Positions 22,678-62,275 are shown, counted from the first letter of the stretch. The stretch is 64,000 nucleotides of DNA from Nitrosopumilus sp. (GCA_965207445.1 CBDBLX010000002.1:416001-480000), one strand, 5' to 3'. The notes: generated by a model not told the origin, from the sequence alone. Translations and numbers: made by a program.

Positions 22678-22795
22678 GCATACTGATACGATTAAAGATC
22701 CGATATTTTGATTGATATTCATCTCAAAGTTGAGCACATATTATGAATACAAAATATTAGAAAACTATCGGATCTTTAATGAAACTATTATGCAC
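22678..22795. mobile_element. ~118-bp repeat element (family C) with internal ATTAAAGATCCGATA inverted repeats
   Basis: Inverted copy at 30963-31080, partial copy at 51636-51711. Confidence 0.85.
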
Positions 22796-30962: not shown

Positions 30963-31080
30963 GTGCCTAATAATTTCATTAAAGATCAGATAGTTTTCTA
31001 ATATTTTGTATTCATAATATGTGCTCAACTTCGAGATGAATATCAATCAAAATATCGGATCTTTAATCATATCAGTATGC
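30963..31080. mobile_element. Family C repeat element, copy 2
   Basis: Reverse complement of 22678-22795. Confidence 0.85.
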
Positions 31081-33480: not shown

Positions 33481-34009
33481 ATTTTCGTAAAAACTTTATA
33501 ATTTATCTGTCCTAATTCATATTGATCTTCTAATATCTCATTTTTTATATATGATCAGAAATATTAAAATATTCCCATATATTATACTTTCTATTTGATC
33601 CGATCAAATATGATCATTAACATTCAACGATATTGTAGATTATTCAAATAAAATCATATAAAACACATTGCTAACTACTGGCGCAGCCGGGTCAGGACAG
33701 TATTTCCCGTCACCGTGGGGGTGGGGATCCGGCGCGGTCGCGCGTGCAAGGATGCTTGACGTGCGGAGGTCGCGGCCCGTGCCGGGATGCGTCTGCTGCG
33801 ACTCTACCATATGCCGCGCGCAGGTCGGCCGCCGCGGCTCAAAACCGCGGCATTCTTCGCGCTGGCCTTTCGAATCGGCTGGAGTTCGGGCATCTCGCGC
33901 GTTCGGGCGCGCCGGGACGCGCGCGGATTACGGGGCAGAAAACCCCGAATCAGGCAGGGCCGCCGGCCCGATCGGACTGCTTAAATACACCATGCTCCCG
34001 TCACTATCT

Positions 34010-36112
34010 ATGGATAATAAGTCCGTCCTGCTCCCATGCCTGGCCGCCGCGCTTGTCGTTATTGCGATCGTGGCCACTCTACCCGGCGACGCGCACGCCC
34101 AGCAGGAGGTGCCGGCGGACTGGGCGTATGTCCCCGACGACCTGGGCCCCGGAGACACGTTCAGGCTGATGTTTGCGTCAACCGGGTACCACCAGACCCG
34201 GAGCAGCGATCCGACCCATTATCACGGTATCATAGAGGGCAGGGCCGCGTCCTCCGGGCTGGCTGCCTATAGTGACAGCTTCAACGCGCTGGTCAACACC
34301 GACTCCTACAACACCAACATCGTGGGCGTGCCAGGTCCGGACCTCATAGAGTACCGCATAAGCGACACGAGGATTGCAAACAACGTGATCGACCCCGGGC
34401 CTGCCATTCCAATATACTGGGTAAACGGACCAAGGGTCGCAGACAGCGGCACGCAGCTCATCTATGGGTCGTGGCAGACGGGTATCAGCGACGTTAGGAC
34501 TGAGCACGGCAGGCTCTTGTCGCCCGAGGCGTCCTACCGCCAGGGCCCGCACAACTATGACAACTTTTGGTTCGCCACTGGCATGTACGAAAGGGATGCC
34601 ATAACGGGCGGCGGGTACTATGCCCTCGGCGACTCCTACGTGGGTTGCACCTATTACAGCGGCGGCTACGGCGGCCCCGGACTGGGCGACCGCGTATGCA
34701 GCGAGCACGTGAGGGTGGGCCTCTTCGGGTTGTCCGACGTCTTTCAGGTCCAGCCTGACGGCCCGACGACTCCGCCATCCGGAGGGAATACATTAGTTTC
34801 CGCAACTGCATTCACTCAAGTCTACGAGAGGGGCGGCGACCGCGCCCGCGAGGGTGACACCATTAGAATTACAATCGATTTTATCCCACCCCCCACGTCT
34901 ACACTCGCGCTTAACATTACGCTCTCGCACACTGGAGAGACGCTTGATCCGCGAGTGGCGGGCACGCGCATCCTGGTAATCCCGGCCGGCACCTCACAGT
35001 TGGAGCTTCGGGTTCCCACAATCGACGACAGGACGTCAGAGTCGCTCACTGGCAACACGGTGACGATCACCCTAAACCCCGGCGATTACACCCTGAGCCC
35101 GCGCCCCTGGCAAAACGTTGCCACGGTGACCCTGCGGGACACCAACAACCTGAGCCAGTACAGCCCGCCCCCACCGACCACGGTATCCATAGGGCTGTCT
35201 GGCGGCGGCTCTGAGGGCGACCCAGTGTCCTTTGGCATCGGCGCGTCCCCCGCCCCGTTGCAACCCCTGCCGGTCAACGTTACATTATCCGGCACCGGCG
35301 GCGTGTTGAACGCATCCGACGCAGGCTGGCGCATCATAGTGATACCGCCGATCGGCTCGTACACCCTTGAGGTCCCGACCATAAACGACAACGTCATAGA
35401 CGACAACACGGTTACACTCACGATAAACCCTGGCGACTATAAGTTGGGACAGTTCCACACCTGGACCGTGAACGTGCAGGACGCCGGCACCAGCCAGGAG
35501 CTGATGCAGCCGCCCGTGTACGACAAGCTCATCCAGGCAGAGAATATGACGACAGTCGAGATAGATCCAGCGTTGGTCGCCAACGTGACCGCGATGGCCA
35601 ACCAGACGCAGCACGGCAACGCGCACGTGGACAGGTGGAACCGCGTTTTAGCTGCCTTTGGCGAGATCGACCACTCAAACCCGATGACAGCGGCAGAGGC
35701 ACAAACCAATGCAGAAAAGTACAGCAGCCCGCTGTGGCCTCTGATAGTCGACGTGCTTACATTGCTAGAGGCGGCAGCAGAACAGGACAATCCGCAGACG
35801 CCACCTGACACGCCACCTGACACGCCACCTGACACGCCACCTGACACGCCACCTGACACGCCACCTGACACGCCACCTGACACGCCACCTACTATAGACC
35901 AGGCGCTGATCAACAGCGTCAGGGAGCTGGCGGCACAGACGCACCACGGCGACGCGCACGTGGACAGGTGGAACCGCGTTTTAGCTGCCTTTGGCGAGAT
36001 CGACCACTCAAACCCGATGACAGCGGCAGAGGCGCAAACCAATGCAGAAAAGTACAGCAGCCCGCTGTGGCCGCAGATTGCAAAAGTACTGACACAGCTT
36101 GAGTCAAACTAA
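34010..36112 (+). CDS. GC-rich secreted/surface protein: possible lectin-like N-domain, two Calx-beta/Ig-like repeats, two helical repeats flanking a (TPPD)8 linker
   Basis: Signal peptide ending AHA; EGD..., L.VPTI.D, NTVT.T.NPGDY repeats; TTAAATA box 29 nt upstream of ATG 34010. Confidence 0.8.
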   Translation: MDNKSVLLPCLAAALVVIAIVATLPGDAHAQQEVPADWAYVPDDLGPGDTFRLMFASTGYHQTRSSDPTHYHGIIEGRAASSGLAAYSDSFNALVNTDSYNTNIVGVPGPDLIEYRISDTRIANNVIDPGPAIPIYWVNGPRVADSGTQLIYGSWQTGISDVRTEHGRLLSPEASYRQGPHNYDNFWFATGMYERDAITGGGYYALGDSYVGCTYYSGGYGGPGLGDRVCSEHVRVGLFGLSDVFQVQPDGPTTPPSGGNTLVSATAFTQVYERGGDRAREGDTIRITIDFIPPPTSTLALNITLSHTGETLDPRVAGTRILVIPAGTSQLELRVPTIDDRTSESLTGNTVTITLNPGDYTLSPRPWQNVATVTLRDTNNLSQYSPPPPTTVSIGLSGGGSEGDPVSFGIGASPAPLQPLPVNVTLSGTGGVLNASDAGWRIIVIPPIGSYTLEVPTINDNVIDDNTVTLTINPGDYKLGQFHTWTVNVQDAGTSQELMQPPVYDKLIQAENMTTVEIDPALVANVTAMANQTQHGNAHVDRWNRVLAAFGEIDHSNPMTAAEAQTNAEKYSSPLWPLIVDVLTLLEAAAEQDNPQTPPDTPPDTPPDTPPDTPPDTPPDTPPDTPPTIDQALINSVRELAAQTHHGDAHVDRWNRVLAAFGEIDHSNPMTAAEAQTNAEKYSSPLWPQIAKVLTQLESN
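35612..36072 (+). repeat. Two near-identical 128-bp repeats (35612-35739, 35945-36072) flanking a 12-bp x8 tandem array (35798-35893)
   Basis: Read directly from the sequence. Confidence 0.95.
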
Positions 36113-51310: not shown

Positions 51311-51495
51311 GTGTGTTATTGGGCTAGTGTAAATTTTTAGCTTGTTATTTGTGTACGTAAACACTACACATTAATTATTGTGTTGTTTTTGTAAAATGTA
51401 TTTGAGTTTGTACATTTTGTAGTTGTTATTGTTGTTGATACGTGTACACGGACTTTTTCGTCAAGATTTAAATGCATTTTTACAGTCCTAATTTT

Positions 51496-51570
51496 GGGCT
51501 CATAGTCCAGATCGGTTATGACGTCGCCCTTACACGGCGAAGATCCGGGGTTCAAATCCCCGTGGGCCCA
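51496..51570 (+). tRNA. tRNA-Val (anticodon TAC)
   Basis: GGGCTCA/TGGGCCC acceptor stem, TCGCC-CTTACAC-GGCGA anticodon arm, GGTTCAAATCC T arm. Confidence 0.97.
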
Positions 51571-51843
51571 TTCCCATTTGGGTTCAGGTCCATTTGTGTT
51601 GCTTGTCTTTTTGTTATATGGCACGACCTTGCCGTGAGGTTGGTGCGTAATGGTTTCATTAAAGATCCGATAGTTTTCTAATATTTTGTATTCATAATAT
51701 GTGCTCAACTTTCTCCATTATCAAAACAAACCAAGATTGCATCAATCTTGTTTAGGGGTTGATGTAATTCTCGGTGGAGTTTCACGTGTCAAGATGCATG
51801 TAATACAATTAACCTTTTTAAAGTTCACGAGAGTACTAATGAC

Positions 51844-52056
51844 ATGGGCACAACAATACAAAAAAAGACATACACAGTTGTCCTAACCAAGGACTTGGAG
51901 GATGGTGGATTTGTAGGTACATGTGACGAGCTTCATGCAGTGTCCGAAGGTGATACGTTCGGTGAAGTGATGTCCAATATGCGAGAAGCAGTAGAACTTG
52001 CGGCCGAGGTGAGTGGCAACATAACTGACTTTAACATGCTAATAGTGGAGAAGTAA
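51844..52056 (+). CDS. hicB: HicB-family antitoxin (short), copy 1
   Basis: Y.V...EDGGFVG.C.EL...SEG.T..E...N..EA. Confidence 0.85.
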   Translation: MGTTIQKKTYTVVLTKDLEDGGFVGTCDELHAVSEGDTFGEVMSNMREAVELAAEVSGNITDFNMLIVEK

Positions 52057-52281
52057 TGTCAAAATTTCCGCTAGTGTCGGGTAACCAGATGATGCGATAT
52101 TTGCAAAAAGGGATTTGTCATAACTCGGCAAAGTGGTAGTCACATAATACTACGTAATGTAGACCACGTCACAGTTGTACCTGTGGGAAACAAAAAACTC
52201 AGAATTGGAACTCAGTTTTCCATACTTTTGTATGCATGGATCGATAAAGACTTGTTTTCCAATGAATATGATCAAATTTAG
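52056..52281 (+). pseudogene. hicA: HicA-family toxin, frameshifted copy 1
   Basis: Homologous to 54655-54891 (SGNQM.RYLQ, GSHI); frame broken near 52105. Confidence 0.8.
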
Positions 52282-52593
52282 TACACAGGCATGTTAAATA
52301 GAAATTTTTTGAGCGTACGTCACTTGATTAAGTCAGTACATAAGAAAAGCATGGTTTTGTTTGAAGTCTCAATCAAGTCTATGGCGACGAGCATAAGTCC
52401 GTGTACGCCATTTTTACACGATTTTATGCCTGAAAAGATCATATCAGTAGTTCAAAAAGTATAGCGGTGTTTGAGTCCGGATTCGGGTACATTGTCACTA
52501 TGTGTTGTTTGTAAGGTCAGTGACATGATTGCGAGGTAGAAAACATATGTATCATATATCTGATCAGGCAGGTTTGCAAGCCCGGTTCAGCGC

Positions 52594-52904
52594 GAGGTTG
52601 GTGCGTAATTGACATTTGGACTGCCTGTGACCCGTCTGTGAACTTGGTTTATTGAACATTCAATCTGCAGAAAACTGAAATCTATCTATAGTGCGTTTAG
52701 TTTTTGAATATGCAAGTGTGTTTTGGCAGACATAGATTATAGAACATGAAACGCGCAAGTGTGATAACAGTATCTATCATTTGTATGATGGAGTTTTTTG
52801 CCCTTTTTCATGAGCGCAGATAAATCTGTTCAGGACGTTGATATTCCATGCAATCGATAGTATTTTGCCAAACCGCTTTCTGTTTTTGGCCAAACGCATG
52901 CGAC
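52594..52904 (-). mobile_element. Right-end fragment of the 27480-type IS
   Basis: TIR plus ~310 bp matching 31639-31950. Confidence 0.88.
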
Positions 52905-53087
52905 GGTGATCAGACTCACTTGATGGTTTGATCTGCTCAGAGCAGTATCTGTACAGCGTAATTTCACATACTTCACTTGACTTCATGTTGTTGTATTATG
53001 CGATAACGTGGCATATATAACTATCGTAGAAACGTATAACATGCCAAGCTTTAAACGCAGTATCATCTGACACGATAACAACACACC

Positions 53088-53321: not shown

Positions 53322-54449
53322 TTGAACAAGTTGGATTCTAGGCAAGGTGTTCCTAAAGGGTGGGCCATGACCAAATTAAATGCCATTGGGCAGATCACTG
53401 GCGGTGGCACTCCGGATTCAACAAACTTGAGATATTGGGGTGGAGACGTACTTTGGGCAGTTCCAACAGACATTACAAAATTGTTAACAAACTATATTCA
53501 TGATACAGAAAGAAAAATCACAAAATTAGGATTGAAAAACAGTTCTGCAAAACTACTTCCTGCTGGGACTGTTTTAATTACCACTCGAGCTACAATTGGA
53601 GAATGCGCAATTACTGCCAAGTCCATATCTACAAATCAAGGATTTCAAAACATAACCTGCAATAACAACTTTGATAACTTGTATGTATTTTATATGATAA
53701 AATACAATACAAACAAACTATTGCGTATGTCGTATGGAACTACTTTTCTTGAAATTTCAAAATCTACAATTAAAAATATAAAAATTAAAATTCCAAAACA
53801 AAAATTTGAGCAAACTAAGATTGCATCAATCCTTTCGGGAGTTGATGCATTGATAGAGTTGACACAACAAATGGTTGATAAGACTAAGCAATTAAAGAAA
53901 GGACTCACGAAAACATTGTTAACCAGAGGGATTGGCCACACGGAATTTATAACGAAGATTCTGGGGAACGTTGCCGAATTCACAAGTGGAGAATTTTTAG
54001 CAACAAAAGATTACAACCGTGGCAAGATCCCTGTTTATGGTGGAAATGGGATTTCCGGACATCATAATAAGGAACTAATTGCATATGATACAATAATTTT
54101 TGGCAGAGTAGGCGCATATTGCGGTTCAATACATTTTTCAAATGGCAAATCTTGGGTCACTGACAATGCCATATTTATTAGAAATCTCTCGGAACATATT
54201 ATCATAGAATATCTTTACAGATTTTTATCCCATTTGAATATTCGACTTTTAGCTGAAGTATCTGCACAGCCAAAAATCACCCAAGACATTCTCACGCATA
54301 TTAAGATCCGGTTTCCAAGTATAGACAAACAACGTAAAATTGCATCAATCCTGTCAGGGGTTGACGCGGTCTACAGCCATCTTGTACATGTCAATATGCA
54401 CGTGAAACGGGCAATCTTTTTAATGTTCTTAAAGTCAGTAGTATCATGA
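53322..54449 (+). CDS. hsdS: Type I R-M specificity subunit, second copy, lacking the canonical C-terminal tail
   Basis: VPKGW, GGTP, two TRDs each followed by Q.KIASILSGVDA. Confidence 0.9.
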   Translation: MNKLDSRQGVPKGWAMTKLNAIGQITGGGTPDSTNLRYWGGDVLWAVPTDITKLLTNYIHDTERKITKLGLKNSSAKLLPAGTVLITTRATIGECAITAKSISTNQGFQNITCNNNFDNLYVFYMIKYNTNKLLRMSYGTTFLEISKSTIKNIKIKIPKQKFEQTKIASILSGVDALIELTQQMVDKTKQLKKGLTKTLLTRGIGHTEFITKILGNVAEFTSGEFLATKDYNRGKIPVYGGNGISGHHNKELIAYDTIIFGRVGAYCGSIHFSNGKSWVTDNAIFIRNLSEHIIIEYLYRFLSHLNIRLLAEVSAQPKITQDILTHIKIRFPSIDKQRKIASILSGVDAVYSHLVHVNMHVKRAIFLMFLKSVVS

Positions 54450-54658
54450 GTACCACTATCCAGAAGAAGACATACTCGGTCACCATAACCAAAGATGATG
54501 AAGGACTTTTCATCGGGAGATGTGATGAACTACATGCAAATTCACAAGGTGAATCGTTTGGAGAGATTGTAGAAAACATGAAAGACGCGGTAGGACTTGT
54601 GGCCGAAGAAGTAGACAACATAGCAGACTTTAACATGCTTATAATAGAACAGAAATGA
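54446..54658 (+). CDS. hicB: HicB-family antitoxin, copy 2
   Basis: Paralogue of 51844-52056. Confidence 0.85.
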   Translation: MSTTIQKKTYSVTITKDDEGLFIGRCDELHANSQGESFGEIVENMKDAVGLVAEEVDNIADFNMLIIEQK

Positions 54659-54891
54659 CAAAGACGCCCAGAATATCAGGTAACCAAATGACACGATATC
54701 TACAAAGAAAAGGATACGTTATAATTTGCAGAAAGGGAAGTCATATAATGTTAAGAAAAGAAGACGTCATTACAACTGTACCTGCTGGAATCAAAACATT
54801 AGGTATTGGAATACAATACGCCATCCTTACTGATGTCAGTATATCAAAAACAGAATTCATTAATGATTACGATTGTGGGTTGATAAAGTAA
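54655..54891 (+). CDS. hicA: HicA-family toxin, copy 2
   Basis: L..KGY...RKGSH, TVP. Confidence 0.82.
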   Translation: MTKTPRISGNQMTRYLQRKGYVIICRKGSHIMLRKEDVITTVPAGIKTLGIGIQYAILTDVSISKTEFINDYDCGLIK

Positions 54892-54946
54892 CTGACAAAG
54901 GATACAGACATGGGTATAAAATAGAACTGTTGAAAGCATACAATAC

Positions 54947-55868
54947 TTGATCAAACCAATACGTCAAAGGAGTCTGATCTTGTTTGAAGAATCAATCAAG
55001 TCAAAATACACTAAAAGGAACTACACATCACACATAAATCAATTCAAAAGATTTACGAGTGTATCAAGCTTTGATCAATGGCTAGAAATTTCATCAAAAG
55101 ATTTGCAAGTAATGTTAGAAGACTATGCAATACATCTAAGACACACCGCCAATCCCAATTCCATACCATCGCTATTCAAGGGAATAAGACATTTTTTTTG
55201 TGATGAATCAGGTTGATCTCAATTGGCATGTGATATACAAAATGTTTCCACAAAAACAAAAAGTAGTAGATCTAAAGTCATATACCACAAATGATGTTCG
55301 TTCAATACTATCTCATGCGATCAGTCTTAGGGATAAAGCACTGATCCATTTTCTTGCGTCAACAGGCGCAAGAATAGGGGTATTTGATCATAACTTGTCA
55401 ATCAAACATCTAAAAAAAATGCCGGCCGGATGCACAGCAGTACTGCTTTATGCCGAGACGGTTGAAGAATACTGGGCGTTTCTCACCCGTCAGGCCACAC
55501 TAGCACTTGAAGTATACCATCGCTTGCGCAAACACAAAGGAGAAACATTTCATTCCAACACTCCCGTCTTTTCTACATTAAAATTTGGCCCACGCCAGCT
55601 TGGTTGGAGTGGCTCTCGGTCTGCAATATACAGAATCGTGTCAAAAAGTGGCATACGACTTAAGCAAGGTGATCGTTTTGACATTCAAGTGGATCATGGA
55701 TTTCGAAAACGATACAATACAATTCTCAAGCTTGAGAATTCAGTTAACTATAACATTGCAGAAAAACTTATGGGCCACAAAAATGGTTTGGATGGAGTAT
55801 ATTTTACACCATCCTTGAACGAATTATTTAGTGAGTTTAAAAAAGTGAGATCTAAATTAGAAGTTTAG
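54947..55868 (+). pseudogene. Tyrosine recombinase split by a +1 frameshift in a T8 run (55192-55199)
   Basis: STGAR, HGFRK, LMGH and catalytic Y intact; T7 would fuse 54947-55216 and 55200-55868. Confidence 0.88.
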
Positions 55869-55886
55869 TTAACACGTCACTTTTAG

Positions 55887-57191
55887 TTACACTTTTACAC
55901 GTATTTGTCCTGTTAGAAGCTTTTGCATAAGGCCTTTTTTCAATTCTTCCAGTTTTTTCTTATATTCCTGATTTTTTTGGATGTATGCGTCAACCCCTGA
56001 CAGGATTGATGCAATCTTGGTTTGTTCTGCTAATGTTGGTATGGGGAATTTGAAACCAACAAAGTTTTTTTGATACAAGTGGTTTATGGTAGAACCTGCT
56101 TTAAGTTTATTCAAGAATTTTTCAAAATAATCTGAAAATAATATGTAGTATAGAAACAGCGGTCTGTATTGATTATCAATTGGACGTATTACGAATACAC
56201 CACTATTCAAAGTCGCAGGTTTTTTTGGCAACGACACAAATGCAATCTTTCCTATTGTACCATCCTTCGTAACTAGAATATCTGCATTTTTCAATTGAAT
56301 ATTTGGATCTTGAATGTAACGATCTTTGTTTACGTAGACACAATTCTCCCAATCGATTTTGCCATTTTTAAAATCTGTACCTGTGACAAGGTGGTAATTC
56401 CCAGTAACAAGATATTCGGATGTGGTTAAACCTTGCCAACCGATCCTACCTTTTAAACTAGAATTCTTGCCAAGTTGCTGTGTTTTCCATTCTTTTGGAA
56501 TTTCAATCTTTTTGCCAAAAAGCCATTTTACTTTCTTAAACTTTTTGTGATTTATCCCTCGGGTCAACAACTGTTGCATCAATCCTCTTTTCAGATTTTC
56601 ATATTTCACTATGATCTGCTGCGTCTTCTCAATCAATGCATCAACTCCCGAAAGGATTGATGCAATCTTGGTTTGTTCTTGCAACGTGGGTAGTAATATT
56701 GGTAACTTTGAATACTGTTGTGCGTTAACATTTGGTTGCACGCCTTGCGTTAATTCAGAAGTTACCCATGTCCAGTATACGTCGCCGTGCGTATAATGAT
56801 GAAGAAAAACAGGCAATATCCTTTTCTCATTTAATTTAAATCGTATCAAATATCCTGCGTAAACACAAAGACCCTGATCTGAAGAAAACAAAAATGTCCT
56901 TCCAACAGAACCGGTTCGTGCAAAAAGAAAATCGTTTTGTTCAAGTACATATTGTTGATTGTTTGTTAATTTAGCAGAGACTTTTTCATCTTTCAACTGT
57001 CCTGCATCATTAATGTCGGTGATTCGTATATACCTAGCTAATTTTGAATCATATGGGAGTGCAGCATCCCCACTTCCATACTCTGGTTTTCTAGATGATA
57101 TGTCAATTAATTTTTGAATTTTCCACTCTTCTGGAATTTTAATCTCTTTGCCAAACAGCCATTTGACTTTTTTATACTTAGATTTATTCAT
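55887..57191 (-). CDS. hsdS: Type I R-M specificity subunit, complete
   Basis: Two IP.EW-TRD-EQTKIASILSGVDA units; KKGLMQKLLTG tail. Confidence 0.95.
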   Translation of the reverse strand: MNKSKYKKVKWLFGKEIKIPEEWKIQKLIDISSRKPEYGSGDAALPYDSKLARYIRITDINDAGQLKDEKVSAKLTNNQQYVLEQNDFLFARTGSVGRTFLFSSDQGLCVYAGYLIRFKLNEKRILPVFLHHYTHGDVYWTWVTSELTQGVQPNVNAQQYSKLPILLPTLQEQTKIASILSGVDALIEKTQQIIVKYENLKRGLMQQLLTRGINHKKFKKVKWLFGKKIEIPKEWKTQQLGKNSSLKGRIGWQGLTTSEYLVTGNYHLVTGTDFKNGKIDWENCVYVNKDRYIQDPNIQLKNADILVTKDGTIGKIAFVSLPKKPATLNSGVFVIRPIDNQYRPLFLYYILFSDYFEKFLNKLKAGSTINHLYQKNFVGFKFPIPTLAEQTKIASILSGVDAYIQKNQEYKKKLEELKKGLMQKLLTGQIRVKV

Positions 57192-57194
57192 GAT

Positions 57195-58676
57195 CTATAC
57201 CTTAAACTTTAGTTCTTTGAGATCTTGCCATACCTTGGATTCAAGTTTCGCACGTTCCTTGTCGAGTTTTTTTAAATCTGTAATTACATTTTGAATATCT
57301 ATTTCTTCCTCAGGTTCTGAAATGTCTACGTATCTGGGTACGTTAAGATTGAATTCATTCTCTTTTAATTCGTCATAATCTGCAACATGAGAATATCTGT
57401 CAATGTCCTTGAATGTATGAAATGTCTTTGTAATTTTTGTAATGTCTTGATCTCTTAACTTGTTTCTGTTTTTGCCTTCTTGGTATTCTTTTGCAGCATA
57501 AATGAATATCATCTTGTTCTTGCGTACTTTGGGTTTTTTGCGGTTTAGTATCATGACACATGCAGGAATACTCGTCCCAAAAAACAATTTTTCTGGAAGT
57601 GCAATTATGCCTTCTATAATGTCCTGATTTATCATATTTTCACGTATTTGGCCCTCGATGCCGCCCCTGAACAACACGCCTTGCGAGCATATGATTGCGG
57701 CCTGACCAGTGTTGTTAAGGTGAGAAAACATATGCTGGATAAAGGCAAAGTCTGCTTTGCCATTTGAGGGTGGTATGCCAAATTCAAATCTTCTGTGCGA
57801 ATCACTTTCGGCAGCCTTGTTGTCCCAATCCATTGAAAACGGAAAATTGGCAAGCACTCTGTCGTATTTCTTGATGCTGCCCTTGTCGATAAGCTGCGGA
57901 TTTGATAACACATCTCCATATGCAATTGTAAAGTGCGTGATTCCGTGCAAAACCATGTTCATCTTACACATTGCCAGATTGCCATAGTTTGACTCTTGTC
58001 CATCCAGCACCATGTTCCTTGGATCTCCTTTTTCTTTCTCTACGTGTTTTCTCGATATAATTAACATGCCTCCAGATCCGCATGTTGGATCGCATATGCG
58101 CATGCCTTCTTTTGGCTGTGTTATGTTCACTAGAAGACTTACAACCTCACGTGGTGTAAAAAATTCACCTCCCTTCTTTTTTGTTGCATCTGCAAACTGC
58201 TCTAGCAGATACTCATATGCATCACCAAATATGTCCTCTTTTTCAAGATCAGAATTTCTAAGCTGTGGCTCGTTGAAATGTGTGACAAGCTTTGCAAGCT
58301 TGTCATCAGGATATTTTTTGGGATCTGAATATTTTGTATTTGTAAGGACACCCTCAAGCTTTGGATTTGCTCTTTCAATCTCTTTGCATGTCTTGTCTAT
58401 CTTCTCACCTATTTTCTTACTTGTTGTCTGCAGCTTGCGCCACCTTGCATCTTTTGGAACAAAAAAGTCGTGAAAGATCTCCATATTTGCTTCCGTTTCA
58501 TTTTTCCCCTGTTTTCTAAGATTCTCTACATTTTCTTCGAATCTATCATTAAGGCGCTTGAGAAACAACAATGTCATTACAGGCTGCCTGTATTCTGAAG
58601 CGTCTAGGCTGCCACGCAAGATGTCTGATGCCTTCCAGAGATGGGACTTGAGTGTCTCTAGTGTTACTTTACTCAA
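57195..58676 (-). CDS. hsdM: Type I R-M methyltransferase subunit
   Basis: GEFFTP, DPTCGSGG, ANFPF motif IV variant. Confidence 0.95.
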   Translation of the reverse strand: MSKVTLETLKSHLWKASDILRGSLDASEYRQPVMTLLFLKRLNDRFEENVENLRKQGKNETEANMEIFHDFFVPKDARWRKLQTTSKKIGEKIDKTCKEIERANPKLEGVLTNTKYSDPKKYPDDKLAKLVTHFNEPQLRNSDLEKEDIFGDAYEYLLEQFADATKKKGGEFFTPREVVSLLVNITQPKEGMRICDPTCGSGGMLIISRKHVEKEKGDPRNMVLDGQESNYGNLAMCKMNMVLHGITHFTIAYGDVLSNPQLIDKGSIKKYDRVLANFPFSMDWDNKAAESDSHRRFEFGIPPSNGKADFAFIQHMFSHLNNTGQAAIICSQGVLFRGGIEGQIRENMINQDIIEGIIALPEKLFFGTSIPACVMILNRKKPKVRKNKMIFIYAAKEYQEGKNRNKLRDQDITKITKTFHTFKDIDRYSHVADYDELKENEFNLNVPRYVDISEPEEEIDIQNVITDLKKLDKERAKLESKVWQDLKELKFKV

Positions 58677-58760
58677 TGCACCTTGGACTATACCTGGCTT
58701 AATAGCAGTTACCCTGAAACAAACTACAAAGTTTTTACGTATGAATTTCCCAATATAACC

Positions 58761-61748
58761 ATGTTCACTGTAGGCAAAGGTGATGAAGTAACAGAATCAG
58801 AGCTCCCCGCCTTGGAGCAACTCTATGCTATGGGGTATGAATATATGGACTCTGCAGACCTTGCAGGGGAGCGGCGTGACTGTGGTACGGTCCTTCTCTA
58901 TGGTAGGCTTGAAGATGCCATTAGGCGACTTAATCCAAATCTTGATGAGGATGGCATCAAAGATGCTTTGGCACAGATTGACGAGGACAACTATGCGCAC
59001 CACCTAGATATCGTAGATACAAATGAAAAGATCAGGGCCAAGCTTGTGGAACTGTCAGTTTCTGGTGGCTTGAATCCGATCACGGTGACACAAAAAACAG
59101 ATGATGGCCCAATCGACACGAGGGTTCGTATTTTTGACTTTGAAAATACACAAACCAATAATTTTTTGGTAACGAATCAGTTTCGCCTCAACGGATTTGA
59201 ACATTACATTATACCGGATATCGTAATTTTTGTAAATGGTATACCGTTGGTTATCATAGAATGCAAATCACCCGCAACACCGGATCCAATTCTTGATGCA
59301 GTAGAGCGAAAAAATTTTGCCAAATACCAGCAACAAAACCAGGGGTACGAACGCCTTTTCTTTTACAATCATTGCCTGATTGCCACATGTGGCACATTGG
59401 CCCGTGTTGGAACCATACGTGCAAGTGTAAATCATTTTGCAAAATGGACCACTCCGAACCCATTGACTAGTGAAGATGTTGAGAAAATGTGTGGGCGAAA
59501 ACCCCGCGAGCAAGAGATACTAATTGCAGGATTACTGTCAAAAGAAAACTTACTTGATCACCTTCAAAACTTTGTATTGTATGAAACACGAAATGCCAAG
59601 CGCATCAAAATGATTGCCAAGCATCAGCAATTTCGTGCCGTGAATCAATGCATAAAAAAGACATCGGTACCTGCAGGAGACAAGGGAGGAGTAATATGGC
59701 ACACCCAAGGATCGGGCAAATCATTTTCCATGCTGTGGTTTGCAACCCAGCTGAGGTACAAGTTTGACAACCCTCCAATACTCATAGTCACTGACAGAAG
59801 ACAACTGGACAAGCAGATTCACGACACGTTTAGAAAATGCGGCTTTCCTGATCCAATCAAGGCTATGTCTGGTGCTCATCTTTCTGAGCTACTCAAATAC
59901 CCTCATGGCAAGACCATCATGACAATAATTGACAAATTTGCAACTCCCACCAAATCATTTACCGATGAAAAGGTGATATGTCTGGTGGACGAAGCTCACC
60001 GAAGCCAGTACAAGATGAACGCTGCTCAAATGAGAATTGCAATGCCCAATGCCATATTCTTTGCCTTTACCGGCACGCCAATTACAAAAAATGAACAATC
60101 CCACACGTATCGGGTTTTCGGAGAACTGCTTGACAAGTACGGGTTTGAGGAATCCCAAAATGATGGCTCTACACTCCCGATCAAATACGATGGAAGAATG
60201 CCTCGTCTGTACGTGGAGGGTGAGAATTCAATAGATGAAATATTTGATAGAATATTCTCTGATCTTGATCCTTCTCTAAAAAACACACTCAAAAAACGAT
60301 ATGTGACCAAAACAAGTATTGCAGAGGCCCCACACAGAATCGCGCAGATAGTATCGGATTTGATCAACCATTACACGCAACACATAGAACCTAACGGATA
60401 CAAGGCGATGCTAGTTGCACCTTCAAGGGAGGCAGCAGTCACATACAAAAAGAGAATTGACGAGATGAGAGGCCCTGTCTCAAAGATAATTATGACATCA
60501 GAACCAGGCGAAGTGGGCAAGGACGGGACCAGTTGGGACGAATACCATCTTACATCTGAACAACGCAATATTGAATCTGAAAAATTCAAAAACCCCGACG
60601 ATCCGACCAAGATTCTCATAGTCGTTGACATGTTACTTGTAGGGTATGACGCTCCAATATGCCAAGTGCTCTATCTTGATCGCAGCATACGTGAACACAA
60701 TCTACTTCAGGCCATCGCACGTGTAAACCGGCCTTATGATGACACAAAGAAGTACGGATTGGTCGTGGACTATTCAGGGGTTATGTTGGATCTGCAAAAG
60801 GCCCTTGATGCATTTGATACAAAGGATGTGAGTGGAGCTCTGACACCCGTCTCTGAACTTCTTGCTATACTTTGTATGCGGCATGCAGAAACAATGTCTC
60901 TGTTTGACAGAGTCGATATTACTGACAAAGATCAGGTGCTTGAGCACTTTGGTTCTGAGCACAGTCGCGACTTGTTGGCGCGCAGATTTAGACTGTTTTC
61001 AAGCGCCTTGGATTCAGTTCTTCCAGGGAAAGAGGCAGAACCTTATATGGATGACTTTAAGGCTGTGGCCGTTGCATGGCAGACCGTAAAAACGTTTTAC
61101 ACTAATGATACATACAGTACCCATCGATATGCAAAAAAGATTCAGAAAATTATAGACAAGCATATACACTCCCTTGGCATATCTATACTTGTGGATCCAA
61201 CTGAAATAACACATGAGAATTTCTTGGTAACAGTATCAAAACACGTTCCCAAAAACAAACGAGCACAAGCTGCCATGATCAAGAATCGGGCAATACAGAT
61301 AATCAAAGAGATGATGGCAAACAATCCCGCATACTATGAAAAACTCTATGCGCGACTTAAAAGACTGATTTGTGATGAAGAAGCACGTAGACAAAAAAAT
61401 GCAGGGTACTTTACCAACCCCGAGGCATATGAGGAAATCTACAATGAGGCCCTTGCAGAAGAAAAAGAACGCAAGAAAGTATTTGGAGCATATCATGCTA
61501 CACAGTTTGAATTTTCACTATATGGACGGCTTAATGAAACTCTGGGCAGGGATGCCTCACTTGACCTTACAAAGAAAATATTTAAACAGATAAAACCATT
61601 CACTGAAATGGTGGATTACAAGCAAAATCCCGGCATAGAAAAGGACATTAAAAAAATAGTATATGAAACACTGTCAAGTCACATGCCCCTTGCTCAAATA
61701 AACGACATTATGGATGAGACTGTGACACTTGTGAGGGTTGTGTTATAA
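58761..61748 (+). CDS. hsdR: Type I R-M restriction subunit
   Basis: PDIV..NG.PL..IECK, HTQGSGKS, DEAHR, FTGTP, QAIARVNR. Confidence 0.96.
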   Translation: MFTVGKGDEVTESELPALEQLYAMGYEYMDSADLAGERRDCGTVLLYGRLEDAIRRLNPNLDEDGIKDALAQIDEDNYAHHLDIVDTNEKIRAKLVELSVSGGLNPITVTQKTDDGPIDTRVRIFDFENTQTNNFLVTNQFRLNGFEHYIIPDIVIFVNGIPLVIIECKSPATPDPILDAVERKNFAKYQQQNQGYERLFFYNHCLIATCGTLARVGTIRASVNHFAKWTTPNPLTSEDVEKMCGRKPREQEILIAGLLSKENLLDHLQNFVLYETRNAKRIKMIAKHQQFRAVNQCIKKTSVPAGDKGGVIWHTQGSGKSFSMLWFATQLRYKFDNPPILIVTDRRQLDKQIHDTFRKCGFPDPIKAMSGAHLSELLKYPHGKTIMTIIDKFATPTKSFTDEKVICLVDEAHRSQYKMNAAQMRIAMPNAIFFAFTGTPITKNEQSHTYRVFGELLDKYGFEESQNDGSTLPIKYDGRMPRLYVEGENSIDEIFDRIFSDLDPSLKNTLKKRYVTKTSIAEAPHRIAQIVSDLINHYTQHIEPNGYKAMLVAPSREAAVTYKKRIDEMRGPVSKIIMTSEPGEVGKDGTSWDEYHLTSEQRNIESEKFKNPDDPTKILIVVDMLLVGYDAPICQVLYLDRSIREHNLLQAIARVNRPYDDTKKYGLVVDYSGVMLDLQKALDAFDTKDVSGALTPVSELLAILCMRHAETMSLFDRVDITDKDQVLEHFGSEHSRDLLARRFRLFSSALDSVLPGKEAEPYMDDFKAVAVAWQTVKTFYTNDTYSTHRYAKKIQKIIDKHIHSLGISILVDPTEITHENFLVTVSKHVPKNKRAQAAMIKNRAIQIIKEMMANNPAYYEKLYARLKRLICDEEARRQKNAGYFTNPEAYEEIYNEALAEEKERKKVFGAYHATQFEFSLYGRLNETLGRDASLDLTKKIFKQIKPFTEMVDYKQNPGIEKDIKKIVYETLSSHMPLAQINDIMDETVTLVRVVL

Positions 61749-61750
61749 GC

Positions 61751-62275
61751 ATGAGTATAGGTTCGATTTTGAATGGTATTCCCTATACCATAGTGAGGAG
61801 TCGGCGTAGAAAGACCTCTCAAATTCGCGTGGGCCCAGATGGTGTTGAGATACGGATTCCATTTGAAAAACAGGATGCAGATATCATAAAGATGCTTGTT
61901 CACTACCGTAAATGGATCTTAGAGAAATATCAAAAAATTCAAGCCGATAGGATGCGCTTTAAGATTCGATTGAATACATTACACATCATACAACGTACTT
62001 CTGATCTTGCACACAAAATCGGTGTAACGCCAACTGGTATTCTTATCAAACATCTTAAAACAAGGTGGGGAAGCGCTACATCTGATGGCATCATTACCAT
62101 TAATTCTAGATTATTAAAGGCCCCGGACCATGTGGTTGACTATATAATAATTCACGAGCTCTGCCATCTTAAAGTACATGATCATTCTGGTACATACTGG
62201 AACCTTGTAGAGCACCACGCACCTAAATATACAAAAAGCAGAAAATGGCTTGAAGAATATGGCCAATATATTTGA
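61751..62275 (+). CDS. YgjP/M48-like metallopeptidase commonly linked to type I R-M loci
   Basis: RS.RRKT, RWGS, IIHELCHL..H.HS. Confidence 0.88.
   Translation: MSIGSILNGIPYTIVRSRRRKTSQIRVGPDGVEIRIPFEKQDADIIKMLVHYRKWILEKYQKIQADRMRFKIRLNTLHIIQRTSDLAHKIGVTPTGILIKHLKTRWGSATSDGIITINSRLLKAPDHVVDYIIIHELCHLKVHDHSGTYWNLVEHHAPKYTKSRKWLEEYGQYI

Follow-up and report, generated by a model that had tools for sequence, protein, structure and literature searches.

A locus in the genome of Nitrosopumilus sp. (GCA_965207445.1 CBDBLX010000002.1:416001-480000) raises the question of whether this archaeal lineage has, or once had, a recombinase-driven inversion switch of type I specificity (hsdS) genes. The whole stretch of 64,000 nucleotides that was analyzed is called the window here, and coordinates are positions within it (Table 1). 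The locus holds a complete type I set (HsdR, HsdM and two Methylase_S proteins) with all frames open, and its two hsdS genes, encoding 375 aa and 434 aa, are convergent. A preliminary description of this DNA had reported facing hsdS genes with four different target recognition domains (TRDs), and this was borne out. Methylase_S (Pfam) matched each protein in two stretches (E-values of 2.2e-45 for the 375-aa and 1.5e-33 for the 434-aa protein), and when the TRDs were searched genome-wide, each of the four matched itself alone at 35 % identity or more.

Table 1 Features of the hsdS locus and its surroundings in the window
Feature	Position	Strand	Remarks
tRNA-Val(TAC)	51495..51571	+	left border of the low-GC island with the locus; ARAGORN, Rfam 62.3 bits
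Decayed paralogue of junction module	51716..52290	+	pairwise alignment with 54300-54910; 2-base gap inside hicA; parts: hsdS conserved-region remnant 51716-51764, spacer, HicB-like ORF 51844-52056, frameshifted hicA remnant
Dispersed repeat, ~315 bp	52593..52908	+	at least 7 genome copies, 92-93 % identity
hsdS-B	53322..54449	+	TRD1-B, central conserved region, TRD2-B, start of distal conserved region; canonical tail absent
Outer inverted repeat, left arm	53817..53854	.	codons KIASILSGVDALI, hsdS-B central region
Inner inverted repeat, left arm	54339..54367	.	codons IASILSGVDA, hsdS-B distal region
70-aa ORF, putative HicB-like antitoxin	54446..54658	+	name from position and size alone; 4-base overlap with hicA start
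HicA-like toxin gene, 78 aa	54655..54891	+	PF07927, 27.1 bits against a cut-off of 27 (borderline)
Recombinase, N-terminal (SAM-like) part	54947..55216	+	ends in frameshift
8-T run	55192..55199	+	cause of +1 frameshift; 7-T form in frame
Recombinase, catalytic part	55200..55868	+	R, HxxR, H, Y present
hsdS-A	55887..57191	-	complete; sole canonical tail; immediately downstream of hsdM
Inner inverted repeat, right arm	55987..56015	.	hsdS-A distal conserved region
Outer inverted repeat, right arm	56632..56669	.	hsdS-A central conserved region
hsdM	57195..58676	-	N6_Mtase 1.4e-105, HsdM_N 2.1e-27
hsdR	58683..61748	+	SWI2_SNF2 1.1e-68, HSDR_N 6.7e-28
YgjP-like metallopeptidase gene	61751..62275	+	also 3' of hsdR in relatives

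The two genes are connected by two nested pairs of inverted repeats, an outer pair of 38 bp and an inner pair of 29 bp. Both had been described as perfect, and indeed the arms are exact reverse complements and neither pair can be extended by a single base. They lie in KIASILSGVDA codons at the beginning of a conserved region, the central one for the 38-bp pair and the distal one for the 29-bp pair, and they are the longest exact inverted repeats between 50000 and 62300; the next-longest ones (23 bp) involve the decayed hsdS conserved-region remnant at 51725-51747. Identity of this length among unlinked hsdS genes, which the preliminary description took as the mark of mere protein conservation, was not seen: for two unlinked genes from a different hsdS family of this genome, exact identity with either window gene never exceeds 12 bases, and a decayed same-family fragment, likewise unlinked, has 21 exact bases in common (32/33).

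Each repeat contains 8-bp inverted arms, TGCATCAA and TTGATGCA (TTGACGC in the inner site), flanking a 12-bp centre. The crossover regions of well-studied tyrosine recombinases measure 6-8 bp, and the centre here is longer. The dyad symmetry of the repeats is partly forced by the protein sequence. When the central and distal site types were compared, three differences were observed, all of them within the 12-bp centre, and the leucine codon is CTT in 8/8 central sites and CTG in 7/8 distal sites (window, L041, L051 and L055). The repeats show constraint at the DNA level: where codons specify the same residue, they are identical in 323/450 cases in the 10-codon core versus 444/999 in the adjoining tail (10 loci, with non-independent pairs).

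Only one of the two genes carries the canonical C-terminal tail, as had been claimed. hsdS-A alone, on the minus strand, runs past GVDA into the canonical helix YIQKNQEYKKKLEELKKGLMQKLLTGQIRVKV, whereas hsdS-B continues after GVDA with 26 unrelated residues, and the homology between the two genes stops exactly at the inner repeat. The same pattern is found in the window, L041, L051 and L055, where the upstream gene diverges right after GVDA and the convergent gene has GVDAYIQK... In all four loci of the window's hsdS family for which the position of hsdM could be established (window, L040, L041 and L055) the tail bearer is the hsdM-adjoining gene, which suggests a preferred or fixed state, unlike free toggling. 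The preliminary description had pointed to related genomes for alternative TRD orders, and homologous TRDs do occur there in different genes and positions.

When the inversions were simulated, both genes remained open in each of the four states (434/375, 428/381, 384/425 and 390/419 aa) and exactly one canonical tail was present in each. The predicted logic, a transfer of the tail by inner-pair inversion and a swap of TRD2 by outer-pair inversion, thus holds in silico with all four states in frame. In the proposed mechanism, the recombinase would synapse both copies of one repeat pair and invert the intervening DNA. Inversion at the inner pair would pass the tail, the recombinase and hicBA from one hsdS gene to the other, and inversion at the outer pair would exchange TRD2-A for TRD2-B, giving the states 1A-2A, 1B-2B, 1B-2A and 1A-2B, each with one tail-bearing, presumably functional HsdS. 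The tail-less HsdS is assumed to be inactive. The centre differences between the site types would prevent recombination of a central with a distal site.

A tyrosine recombinase had been placed in the inner segment. Its location between the inner repeat arms was confirmed, but the gene is split by a frameshift into two ORFs that overlap by 17 bases (+1 shift in the assembly). Apart from this single frameshift it is intact, with 66 % identity to intact relatives and all catalytic residues kept (R142, H251, R254, H278 and Y286 are invariant; L021 numbering). Recombinases of the intact relatives have 305-309 aa, except for one ORF of 325 aa that starts further upstream. The assembly has the 8-T form, as does the X1 contig across the recombinase, and one base is omitted at 55192 in X2, X3 and X4; an in-frame 7-T allele therefore coexists in the same sample. 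Seven T are also the in-frame state in 3/27 relatives (L052, L053 and L055). No second copy of the recombinase was found in the genome. Since the recombinase is frameshifted in the 8-T run and has no paralogue, the assembled genome is most likely locked in state 1A-2A, with the tail on the hsdM-adjoining gene.

The catalytic residues and the two-domain fold place the protein in the tyrosine recombinase superfamily, although the reading frame in the window is interrupted. Against the Pfam model Phage_integrase (cut-off 27.1 bits), a relative scored 29.2 bits and the C-terminal part of the window gene 26.1 bits. The predicted fold of an intact relative (pLDDT 88) matches XerA (5hxy, E-value 1.9e-10), Cre (TM up to 0.67) and XerH, and archaeal XerA and Cre-type recombinases have the same two-domain fold as is predicted for this relative, together with its catalytic R, HxxR, H and Y. 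A PDB sequence search with the recombinase returned nothing at E-values of 0.001 or lower. An assignment as XerA was rejected because the relative reached 50 bits against the model cut-off of 220, and the window gene, which is the model's sole match in the genome, 22.6 bits. It is not a chromosome-dimer resolvase, as it is found in restriction-modification loci.

A pattern-limited genome scan for related recombinases yielded 70 loci, of which 69 are labelled Nitrososphaerota or Thermoproteota and one is a Hyphomicrobiaceae MAG contig. Among the 32 closest loci, a local hsdS profile pointed to a specificity gene in 19; Pfam upheld 18 of these, with Methylase_S no more than 3.5 kb from the recombinase, and L035 was not confirmed. 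In the 38 distant loci, searched by the local profile only, no hsdS was detected. A quick tree of the recombinases was drawn from 58 rows after 12 rows, carrying 6 to 26 stops, had been dropped. All 18 recombinases adjacent to a specificity gene (17 with hsdS, and L057) fell into one group of 28 members (SH-aLRT 99), all Nitrososphaerota-labelled, and none was among the other 30. For 10 of the 28 no specificity gene was detected nearby, some of them being on short contigs, and several adjoin a TBP paralogue instead. Thus, this clade may have other roles too.

Counting the window, the recombinase is flanked by inverted hsdS genes in seven loci, and the repeat sequences are each locus's own. In L037, L041, L049, L051, L055 and L026, the order hsdS(+)-recombinase-hsdS(-) comes with perfect inverted repeats of at least 20 bp across the recombinase. 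In L057, a type IIG enzyme gene and an inverted partial copy, with inverted repeats of 100 and 214 bp, enclose a clade recombinase. Long inverted repeats in relatives measure 186, 214 and 287 bp. Broken recombinases also occur in L020, L054, L056 and others, and hsdM is split in L041. A metagenome scan with a degenerate 29-base motif for both repeat types picked up a single contig of 1028 bp, which carries a distal region and tail together with a related TRD.

The orientation of the locus was studied in contigs from four runs of one sample. No inversion was seen, and no joints at either repeat pair were listed in these contigs, in which minor forms are invisible. All four repeat arms coincide with contig breaks, a pattern that a strain mixture with SNPs or k-mer repeats can also cause; the contig word length is taken to be 31, which the 38-bp repeat exceeds. 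These breaks were not counted as evidence because a second strain with SNPs also branches. Two 'skip' joints (56027 or 56678 to 57121) were set aside, as they had just 26 letters on one side. A further joint, 54328|56487, links opposite strands and tracks the second strain.

The locus lies in a low-GC stretch (0.36-0.39 at 48-58 kb versus 0.41-0.48 at 16-34 kb). Decayed copies of the junction module are found at 51716-52290 and at C2:1581130-1581768, and one copy of the ~315-bp dispersed repeat abuts an unlinked hsdS fragment (C2:1581792-1582109). In the case of the hicA-like pair inside the predicted invertible segment, the HicA domain was recognized at borderline score and no adjoining HicB-family antitoxin was found: the 70-aa ORF matched no Pfam or NCBIfam family, and its paralogue gave a weak DUF1902 match (E-value 0.055).

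We consider a nested-repeat, invertase-driven hsdS switch with four states, whose assembled allele is most likely locked, to be the best explanation of the locus (probability roughly 0.6), and other readings were weighed against it. The layout could descend from a working switch that no longer inverts here and perhaps in most relatives, the repeats reflecting recent ancestry or gene conversion. The frameshift in the sole recombinase copy, the broken recombinases and split hsdM of the relatives, the tail beside hsdM in 4/4 placeable loci and the decayed module copies all fit such a relic, but it seems unlikely to us: one homopolymer base apart, the recombinase is intact with its catalytic residues, the in-frame 7-T allele is present in the sample, in a dead system, repeats of this length (38 and 29 bp) would not stay free of mismatches, and synonymous sites of the core are better conserved than those of the neighbouring tail. 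The recombinase might instead be the integrase of a genomic island at tRNA-Val with restriction-modification genes as cargo, the repeats being coding conservation homogenized by gene conversion. Indeed, the locus begins ~150 bases past the tRNA gene in a low-GC stretch with dispersed repeats, and thaumarchaeal integrated elements, in the part of the literature considered here, often carry type I systems and XerC/D-like integrases (PMC6563490). The 10/28 clade members with no nearby specificity gene agree with this, and the module of TBP paralogue and recombinase in several relatives looks mobile. However, a search of 80 kb to each side found no repeat of the tRNA-Val gene of at least 14 bases, an integrase yields direct repeats and inverted ones were found, the seven loci with a recombinase between inverted hsdS genes each have their own repeats, and in four species the loss of homology coincides exactly with the edge of the repeat, which makes an island integrase rather improbable. 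Matches in the search for a tRNA-Val att repeat were traced to a short dispersed repeat at 51636-51699 and rejected.

Inversions might also occur through the host's general homologous recombination, with the neighbouring recombinase dispensable. In the portion of the work considered, recombination of the pneumococcal spnIII locus is reported to need none of the known site-specific recombinases (PMC6620402), and the 186-, 214- and 287-bp repeats of relatives would suit this route. We give it only a slim chance here: the window repeats are merely 29 and 38 bp, and general recombination explains neither why the CTT/CTG difference in the centre is conserved nor why recombinase and specificity genes are so tightly linked at the level of the clade. 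Returning to the invertase-driven reading, a lineage-conserved hsdS inversion switch is probably real, and we hold it likely that the architecture is or was such a switch in the Nitrosopumilus lineage; ongoing switching in cells with the assembled allele is doubtful. A bolder proposal, speculative and unlikely as a whole, is that the Nitrososphaerota-biased clade of tyrosine invertases is a dedicated engine of specificity switching in ammonia-oxidising archaea, acting on type I hsdS and type IIG genes through sites in the codons of the HsdS coiled coil, with the synonymous CTT/CTG difference keeping central and distal sites orthogonal, a movable helix picking the active hsdS and 7/8-T slippage, as a second-order switch, locking or freeing the methylome.

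As a probable inversion switch, the locus belongs to a type known from bacteria. In the hsd system of Mycoplasma pulmonis, two full-length inverted hsdS genes recombine at short sites in conserved regions, as proposed for the window; unlike in the window, the gene for the recombinase, HvsR, lies at another place in the genome and the enzyme acts on the vsa locus as well, while the position of the promoter determines expression. The silent copies of the pneumococcal ivr locus are partial cassettes, and three repeat pairs give six alleles. In sections of the published accounts (PMC4948785, PMC7394358, PMC7672463), Streptococcus pneumoniae SpnD39III, or ivr (cod), has the order hsdR-hsdM-hsdS-creX(psrA)-hsdS'-hsdS'' and resembles the window in the locus-encoded tyrosine recombinase, which has an expressed hsdS on one side and inverted hsdS sequence on the other, and in the inverted repeats within the hsdS coding sequence that shuffle TRDs. 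The window differs in that both hsdS genes have their own start and first TRD, in that the C-terminal helix is missing from one of them and would travel with the recombinase, and in the hicA-like pair in the predicted invertible segment. Its recombinase, moreover, has no PDB sequence relative at the threshold given above and belongs to a clade found almost only in Nitrososphaerota-labelled records, and its switch is predicted from sequence. In Streptococcus suis SSU1271-1274 (SsuCC20p), two hsdS genes, inverted repeats and a recombinase give four HsdS according to the relevant part of PMC7394358, the number predicted for the window. That bacterial system was shown experimentally, whereas the four states of the window were obtained in silico, and we infer that the tail chooses the active gene.

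The preliminary description was aware of no such system in ammonia-oxidising archaea. Passages of the main text of Atack et al. 2020, a REBASE survey, agree in naming no archaeon, but its supplementary tables already include Nitrosopumilus maritimus SCM1, listed among the species with repeats in a second annotated hsdS. The SCM1 pair (S1/S2.NmaSCMORF606P) belongs to the same genus and has two hsdS genes with a 39-bp inverted repeat; going by these supplementary tables, it is unlike the window in that its genes diverge, ~1.6 kb apart, and have the repeat at codons 2-15 (N-terminal motif). The passages discuss no recombinase or mechanism for this pair. Surveys of programmed gene-altering inversions are almost all bacterial. 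The scan for such inversions, as outlined in part of Milman et al. 2023, left archaea out, archaeal invertons are called minimally investigated in a passage of the preprint of Chanin et al., and inversion goes unmentioned in sections of a 2024 review of archaeal restriction-modification systems.

If the switch is inactive, the locus is a well-documented, recently locked one. If it is active, the locus would offer a compact recombinase with defined target sites for ammonia-oxidising archaea, a group that to our knowledge still has no genetic tools, and abundant marine nitrifiers would vary their methylome and virus defence by a bet-hedging device of host-associated bacteria.

When the window (G000:C2:416001-480000 in the two-contig, 2.6-Mb genome G000) was analyzed, the two convergent specificity genes and their neighbours were placed as listed in the table below. 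The 48-58 kb part of the window has a GC content of 0.36-0.39, compared with 0.41-0.48 across 16-34 kb. An 814-aa ORF at 33668-36112 is located in a stretch at 61% GC, far above its surroundings, and its sole match was a sub-threshold DUF1627.

Features of the hsdS locus (window positions)
Feature	Position	Strand
tRNA-Val	51495-51571	+
hsdS-B, 375 aa	53322-54449	+
38-bp inverted repeat (outer pair, central site)	53817-53854 / 56632-56669	
29-bp inverted repeat (inner pair, distal site)	54339-54367 / 55987-56015	
70-aa ORF (small ORF)	54446-54658	+
hicA-like gene	54655-54891	+
Tyrosine recombinase, two overlapping ORFs	54947-55216 and 55200-55868	+
hsdS-A, 434 aa	55887-57191	-
hsdM	57195-58676	-
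hsdR	58683-61748	+
YgjP-like peptidase gene	61751-62275	+

Both perfect repeat pairs claimed in the preliminary description were confirmed as exact reverse complements that cannot be extended, with no longer exact inverted repeat present in 50.0-62.3 kb. The 38-bp repeat codes for KIASILSGVDALI and the 29-bp repeat for IASILSGVDA, each at the beginning of its conserved region (central and distal, respectively). The four target recognition domains (TRDs) are indeed different, being mutually unrelated and each matching itself alone in a whole-genome search. The claim of a single canonical C-terminal tail also held: the distal repeat is followed in hsdS-A by the canonical helix and in hsdS-B by 26 unrelated residues that reach into the start of the small ORF. 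The tyrosine recombinase was found in the inner segment as described, though in two overlapping ORFs. Equally long identity in unlinked hsdS genes, for which a check had been proposed, was absent from two such genes of another family; because these have at most 12 exact bases in common with hsdS-A and hsdS-B, the repeat identity is not a matter of general hsdS conservation. The family of hsdS-A and hsdS-B is also represented by an unlinked decayed fragment (C2:1581358-1581800), which has 21 exact bases in common with them, or 32/33. Two long hsdS-like open frames (470 and 507 aa) lie at G000:C2:104300-106000 and G000:C1:106000-107700; their central region is identical (56 exact bases and the same linker of about 50 residues) and their TRDs differ on both sides of it. 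Contig C1 (121 kb) possibly represents another haplotype of a portion of C2.

The core of the sites is ATTGCATCAATCCT-K-TC-N-GG-R-GTTGA-Y-GC, in which 8-bp inverted arms (TGCATCAA / TTGATGCA) flank 12 bases. The central and distal sites of the window show three differences (CTT/CTG, TCG/TCA and GGA/GGG), all of them inside the 12-base centre. In the window and three relatives' loci with the same hsdS family (L041, L051 and L055), homology between the paired genes stops right after GVDA at the distal site, and the Leu codon is CTT in 8/8 central sites and CTG in 7/8 distal sites. When ten loci having the canonical tail were compared, codons for the same residue were identical in 323/450 cases in the 10-codon core vs 444/999 in the adjoining tail, the pairs being non-independent. 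These patterns point to constraint on the sites at the level of DNA. Tyrosine recombinases require identical crossover regions in their partner sites, as established for Cre/lox and FLP/FRT, and thus the conserved synonymous difference would bar recombination between central and distal sites.

When the segment between the arms of each repeat pair was inverted in silico, both genes were open in all four states (434/375, 428/381, 384/425 and 390/419 aa) and the canonical tail was on exactly one gene in each. The inversion logic proposed earlier, in which the tail moves and TRD2 is swapped, is therefore self-consistent. Since the inner segment carries both gene ends (tail and non-tail) in one block with the small ORF, hicA and the recombinase, the gene upstream of the recombinase is tail-less in every state, and the position of hsdM is the sole feature distinguishing the simulated states. 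Counting against an active switch, the tail-bearing gene adjoins hsdM in all four placeable loci (window, L040, L041 and L055). Among the assembled contigs of four public runs of one sample (X1-X4), no joint at either repeat pair and no inversion were seen. The contigs do contain an opposite-strand joint, 54328-56487, with a depth of 3.9, 12.2 and 11.8 in X2-X4 and 0 in X1, matching the depth of a second strain. The joint falls away from the repeats, where TRD2-B ends and TRD2-A starts, and is in frame when read from TRD2-B into TRD2-A.

Relatives of the recombinase are single ORFs of 305-309 aa, plus one of 325 aa with an upstream start. The window recombinase aligns to them over its full length (parts with 56% and 66% identity) with one frame shift, located at a run of eight T (55192-55199); among 27 relatives this run has 7 T, in frame, in three (L052, L053 and L055) and 2-5 T in 24. 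In the public-run contigs one base is missing at 55192 with depths of 0/11.2 in X1, 4.7/12.8 in X2, 25.4/73.6 in X3 (two contigs) and 12.1/23.5 in X4. Because this depth equals that of five SNPs at 55128-55189 in X2, X4 and one of the two X3 contigs, the deletion belongs to the second strain. In X3, the one-base-shorter run occurs in two contigs and the neighbouring SNPs in just one of them; run length may thus vary inside a single strain, not just from strain to strain. A second copy of the recombinase was not found in the genome. The residues R, HxxR, H and Y, invariant across 42 aligned relatives, are present in the window recombinase. The predicted fold of an intact relative, L021 (mean pLDDT 88), matches XerA (E 1.9e-10), Cre (TM up to 0.67), XerH, IntI and lambda Int; its sequence had no PDB relative at E ≤0.001 and scored 50 bits against the archaeal XerA model (cut-off 220). 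Type I systems appear among the cargo of thaumarchaeal integrated elements in passages of Krupovic et al. 2019 (PMC6563490). The lack of any att-like tRNA-Val repeat makes an integrase role for the recombinase less likely here.

A pattern-limited scan, with one genome taken per species, gave 70 recombinase loci: 69 with the label Nitrososphaerota or Thermoproteota, and one on a 3-kb contig from a Hyphomicrobiaceae MAG. Public records label the relatives as Nitrosopumilus, Nitrosopumilaceae or Nitrososphaerota. Pfam analysis covered 124 ORFs (roughly ≥190 aa, two shorter) no more than 3.5 kb from the recombinase in the 32 closest loci and identified Methylase_S in 18 of these loci, and a local profile detected no hsdS in the 38 more distant loci. 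In a quick tree of 58 rows (12 were left out for stops or short length), all 18 rows adjoining a specificity gene (17 hsdS and L057) fell into one group of 28 (SH-aLRT 99), and 0/30 remaining rows adjoin one. As a further point against the switch reading, ten recombinases of the 28-member clade have no specificity gene nearby.

The convergent hsdS-recombinase-hsdS arrangement with perfect repeats across the recombinase recurs in six other loci: L037 (287, 143, 108 bp and shorter), L041 (43, 27 and 24 bp), L049 (186 and 38 bp), L051 (73, 33 and 27 bp), L055 (26 and 20 bp) and L026 (54, 43, 30 and 27 bp). L057:2445-7753 (OZ245003.1, Nitrosopumilus sp.) has a 1157-aa Eco57I/MmeI-like gene and, in inverted orientation, a 269-aa ORF, separated by a recombinase from the same clade (54% identity). 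The 269-aa ORF has no Pfam match and has perfect inverted repeats of 100 and 214 bp in common with the 3' part of the 1157-aa gene; the pair also has a 22-bp perfect inverted repeat. L057 looks like a TRD-swapping switch layout for a single-chain type IIG restriction enzyme. Genes for a TIR-domain protein and an OLD-like ATPase come next. In six loci a TBP paralogue is found no further than about 2 kb from a recombinase of this clade: directly upstream in L031, L039, L043 and L050, some 680 bases upstream in L034, and on the downstream side in L042. An orthologous system without a recombinase at the locus (L019; G009:C1:1143320-1151000; HsdM 73% and HsdR 62% identity) has a different gene order: a single-TRD hsdS, 64% identical to HsdS-A residues 171-432, lies between divergent hsdM and hsdR, and a second hsdS with a truncated copy of the 70-aa ORF is downstream of hsdM.

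Alternative TRD orders, suggested earlier as a check in related genomes, were observed as homologous TRDs in other genes or positions, pointing to TRD movement on an evolutionary time scale. In L055 the recombinase-upstream gene has, as its first TRD, one that is 76% identical to TRD2-A; in L041, the second TRD of the tail-bearing gene is 64% identical to TRD1-B and the upstream gene holds a TRD 68% identical to TRD2-B. In the sample of the public runs, the conserved region at 56678 is also joined to a TRD end that the assembly lacks. Next to tRNA-Val, 51716-52290 is a decayed copy of the junction module, made up of a remnant of the conserved region, the spacer, the small ORF and a hicA interrupted by a 2-base gap. 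A further copy, 1.1 Mb away at C2:1581130-1581768, consists of a truncated TRD fragment, a central-type site, the same spacer and the small ORF. The small ORF of L022 is directed away from a degenerate conserved region and tail and from the recombinase, and its relative orientation differs from that in the window. A dispersed repeat of about 315 bp, with at least seven genome copies at 92-93% identity, lies at 52593-52908, near hsdS-B and the decayed 51716-52290 module, and is also present near the fragment in C2:1581130-1582109. A shorter one (51636-51699) has many copies within 130 kb, including about 22726-22772 and 30974-31018; both look like miniature mobile elements.

The claim of novelty in ammonia oxidisers stands in part. 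No paper was found on such a switch in Nitrosopumilus, Thaumarchaeota or ammonia-oxidising archaea, subscription journals being mostly outside the coverage. However, the supplementary tables of Atack et al. 2020 (PMC7394358) include N. maritimus SCM1 (S1/S2.NmaSCMORF606P, 39-bp inverted repeat), an archaeon being named in none of the passages of its text that were searched. In the portions available, Huang et al. 2020 (PMC7672463) surveyed host-associated bacteria, Milman et al. 2023 (PMC9881135) state that archaea were left out of their scan, and the preprint of Chanin et al. (PMC10028968) gives 12 putative invertons from 42 long-read data sets of archaea (Euryarchaeota and Crenarchaeota) and cites Atack et al. 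for a hint in archaea. The words 'inversion' and 'shufflon' have 0 occurrences in a 2024 review of archaeal R-M systems (PMC11033074).

We concluded that the preliminary description reported a genuine feature and described it well. Most likely, the locus is a lineage-conserved, invertase-driven hsdS switch that a one-base slip has locked in the assembled allele. With its inversion activity predicted, this putative switch is an archaeal addition to a type known from bacteria.
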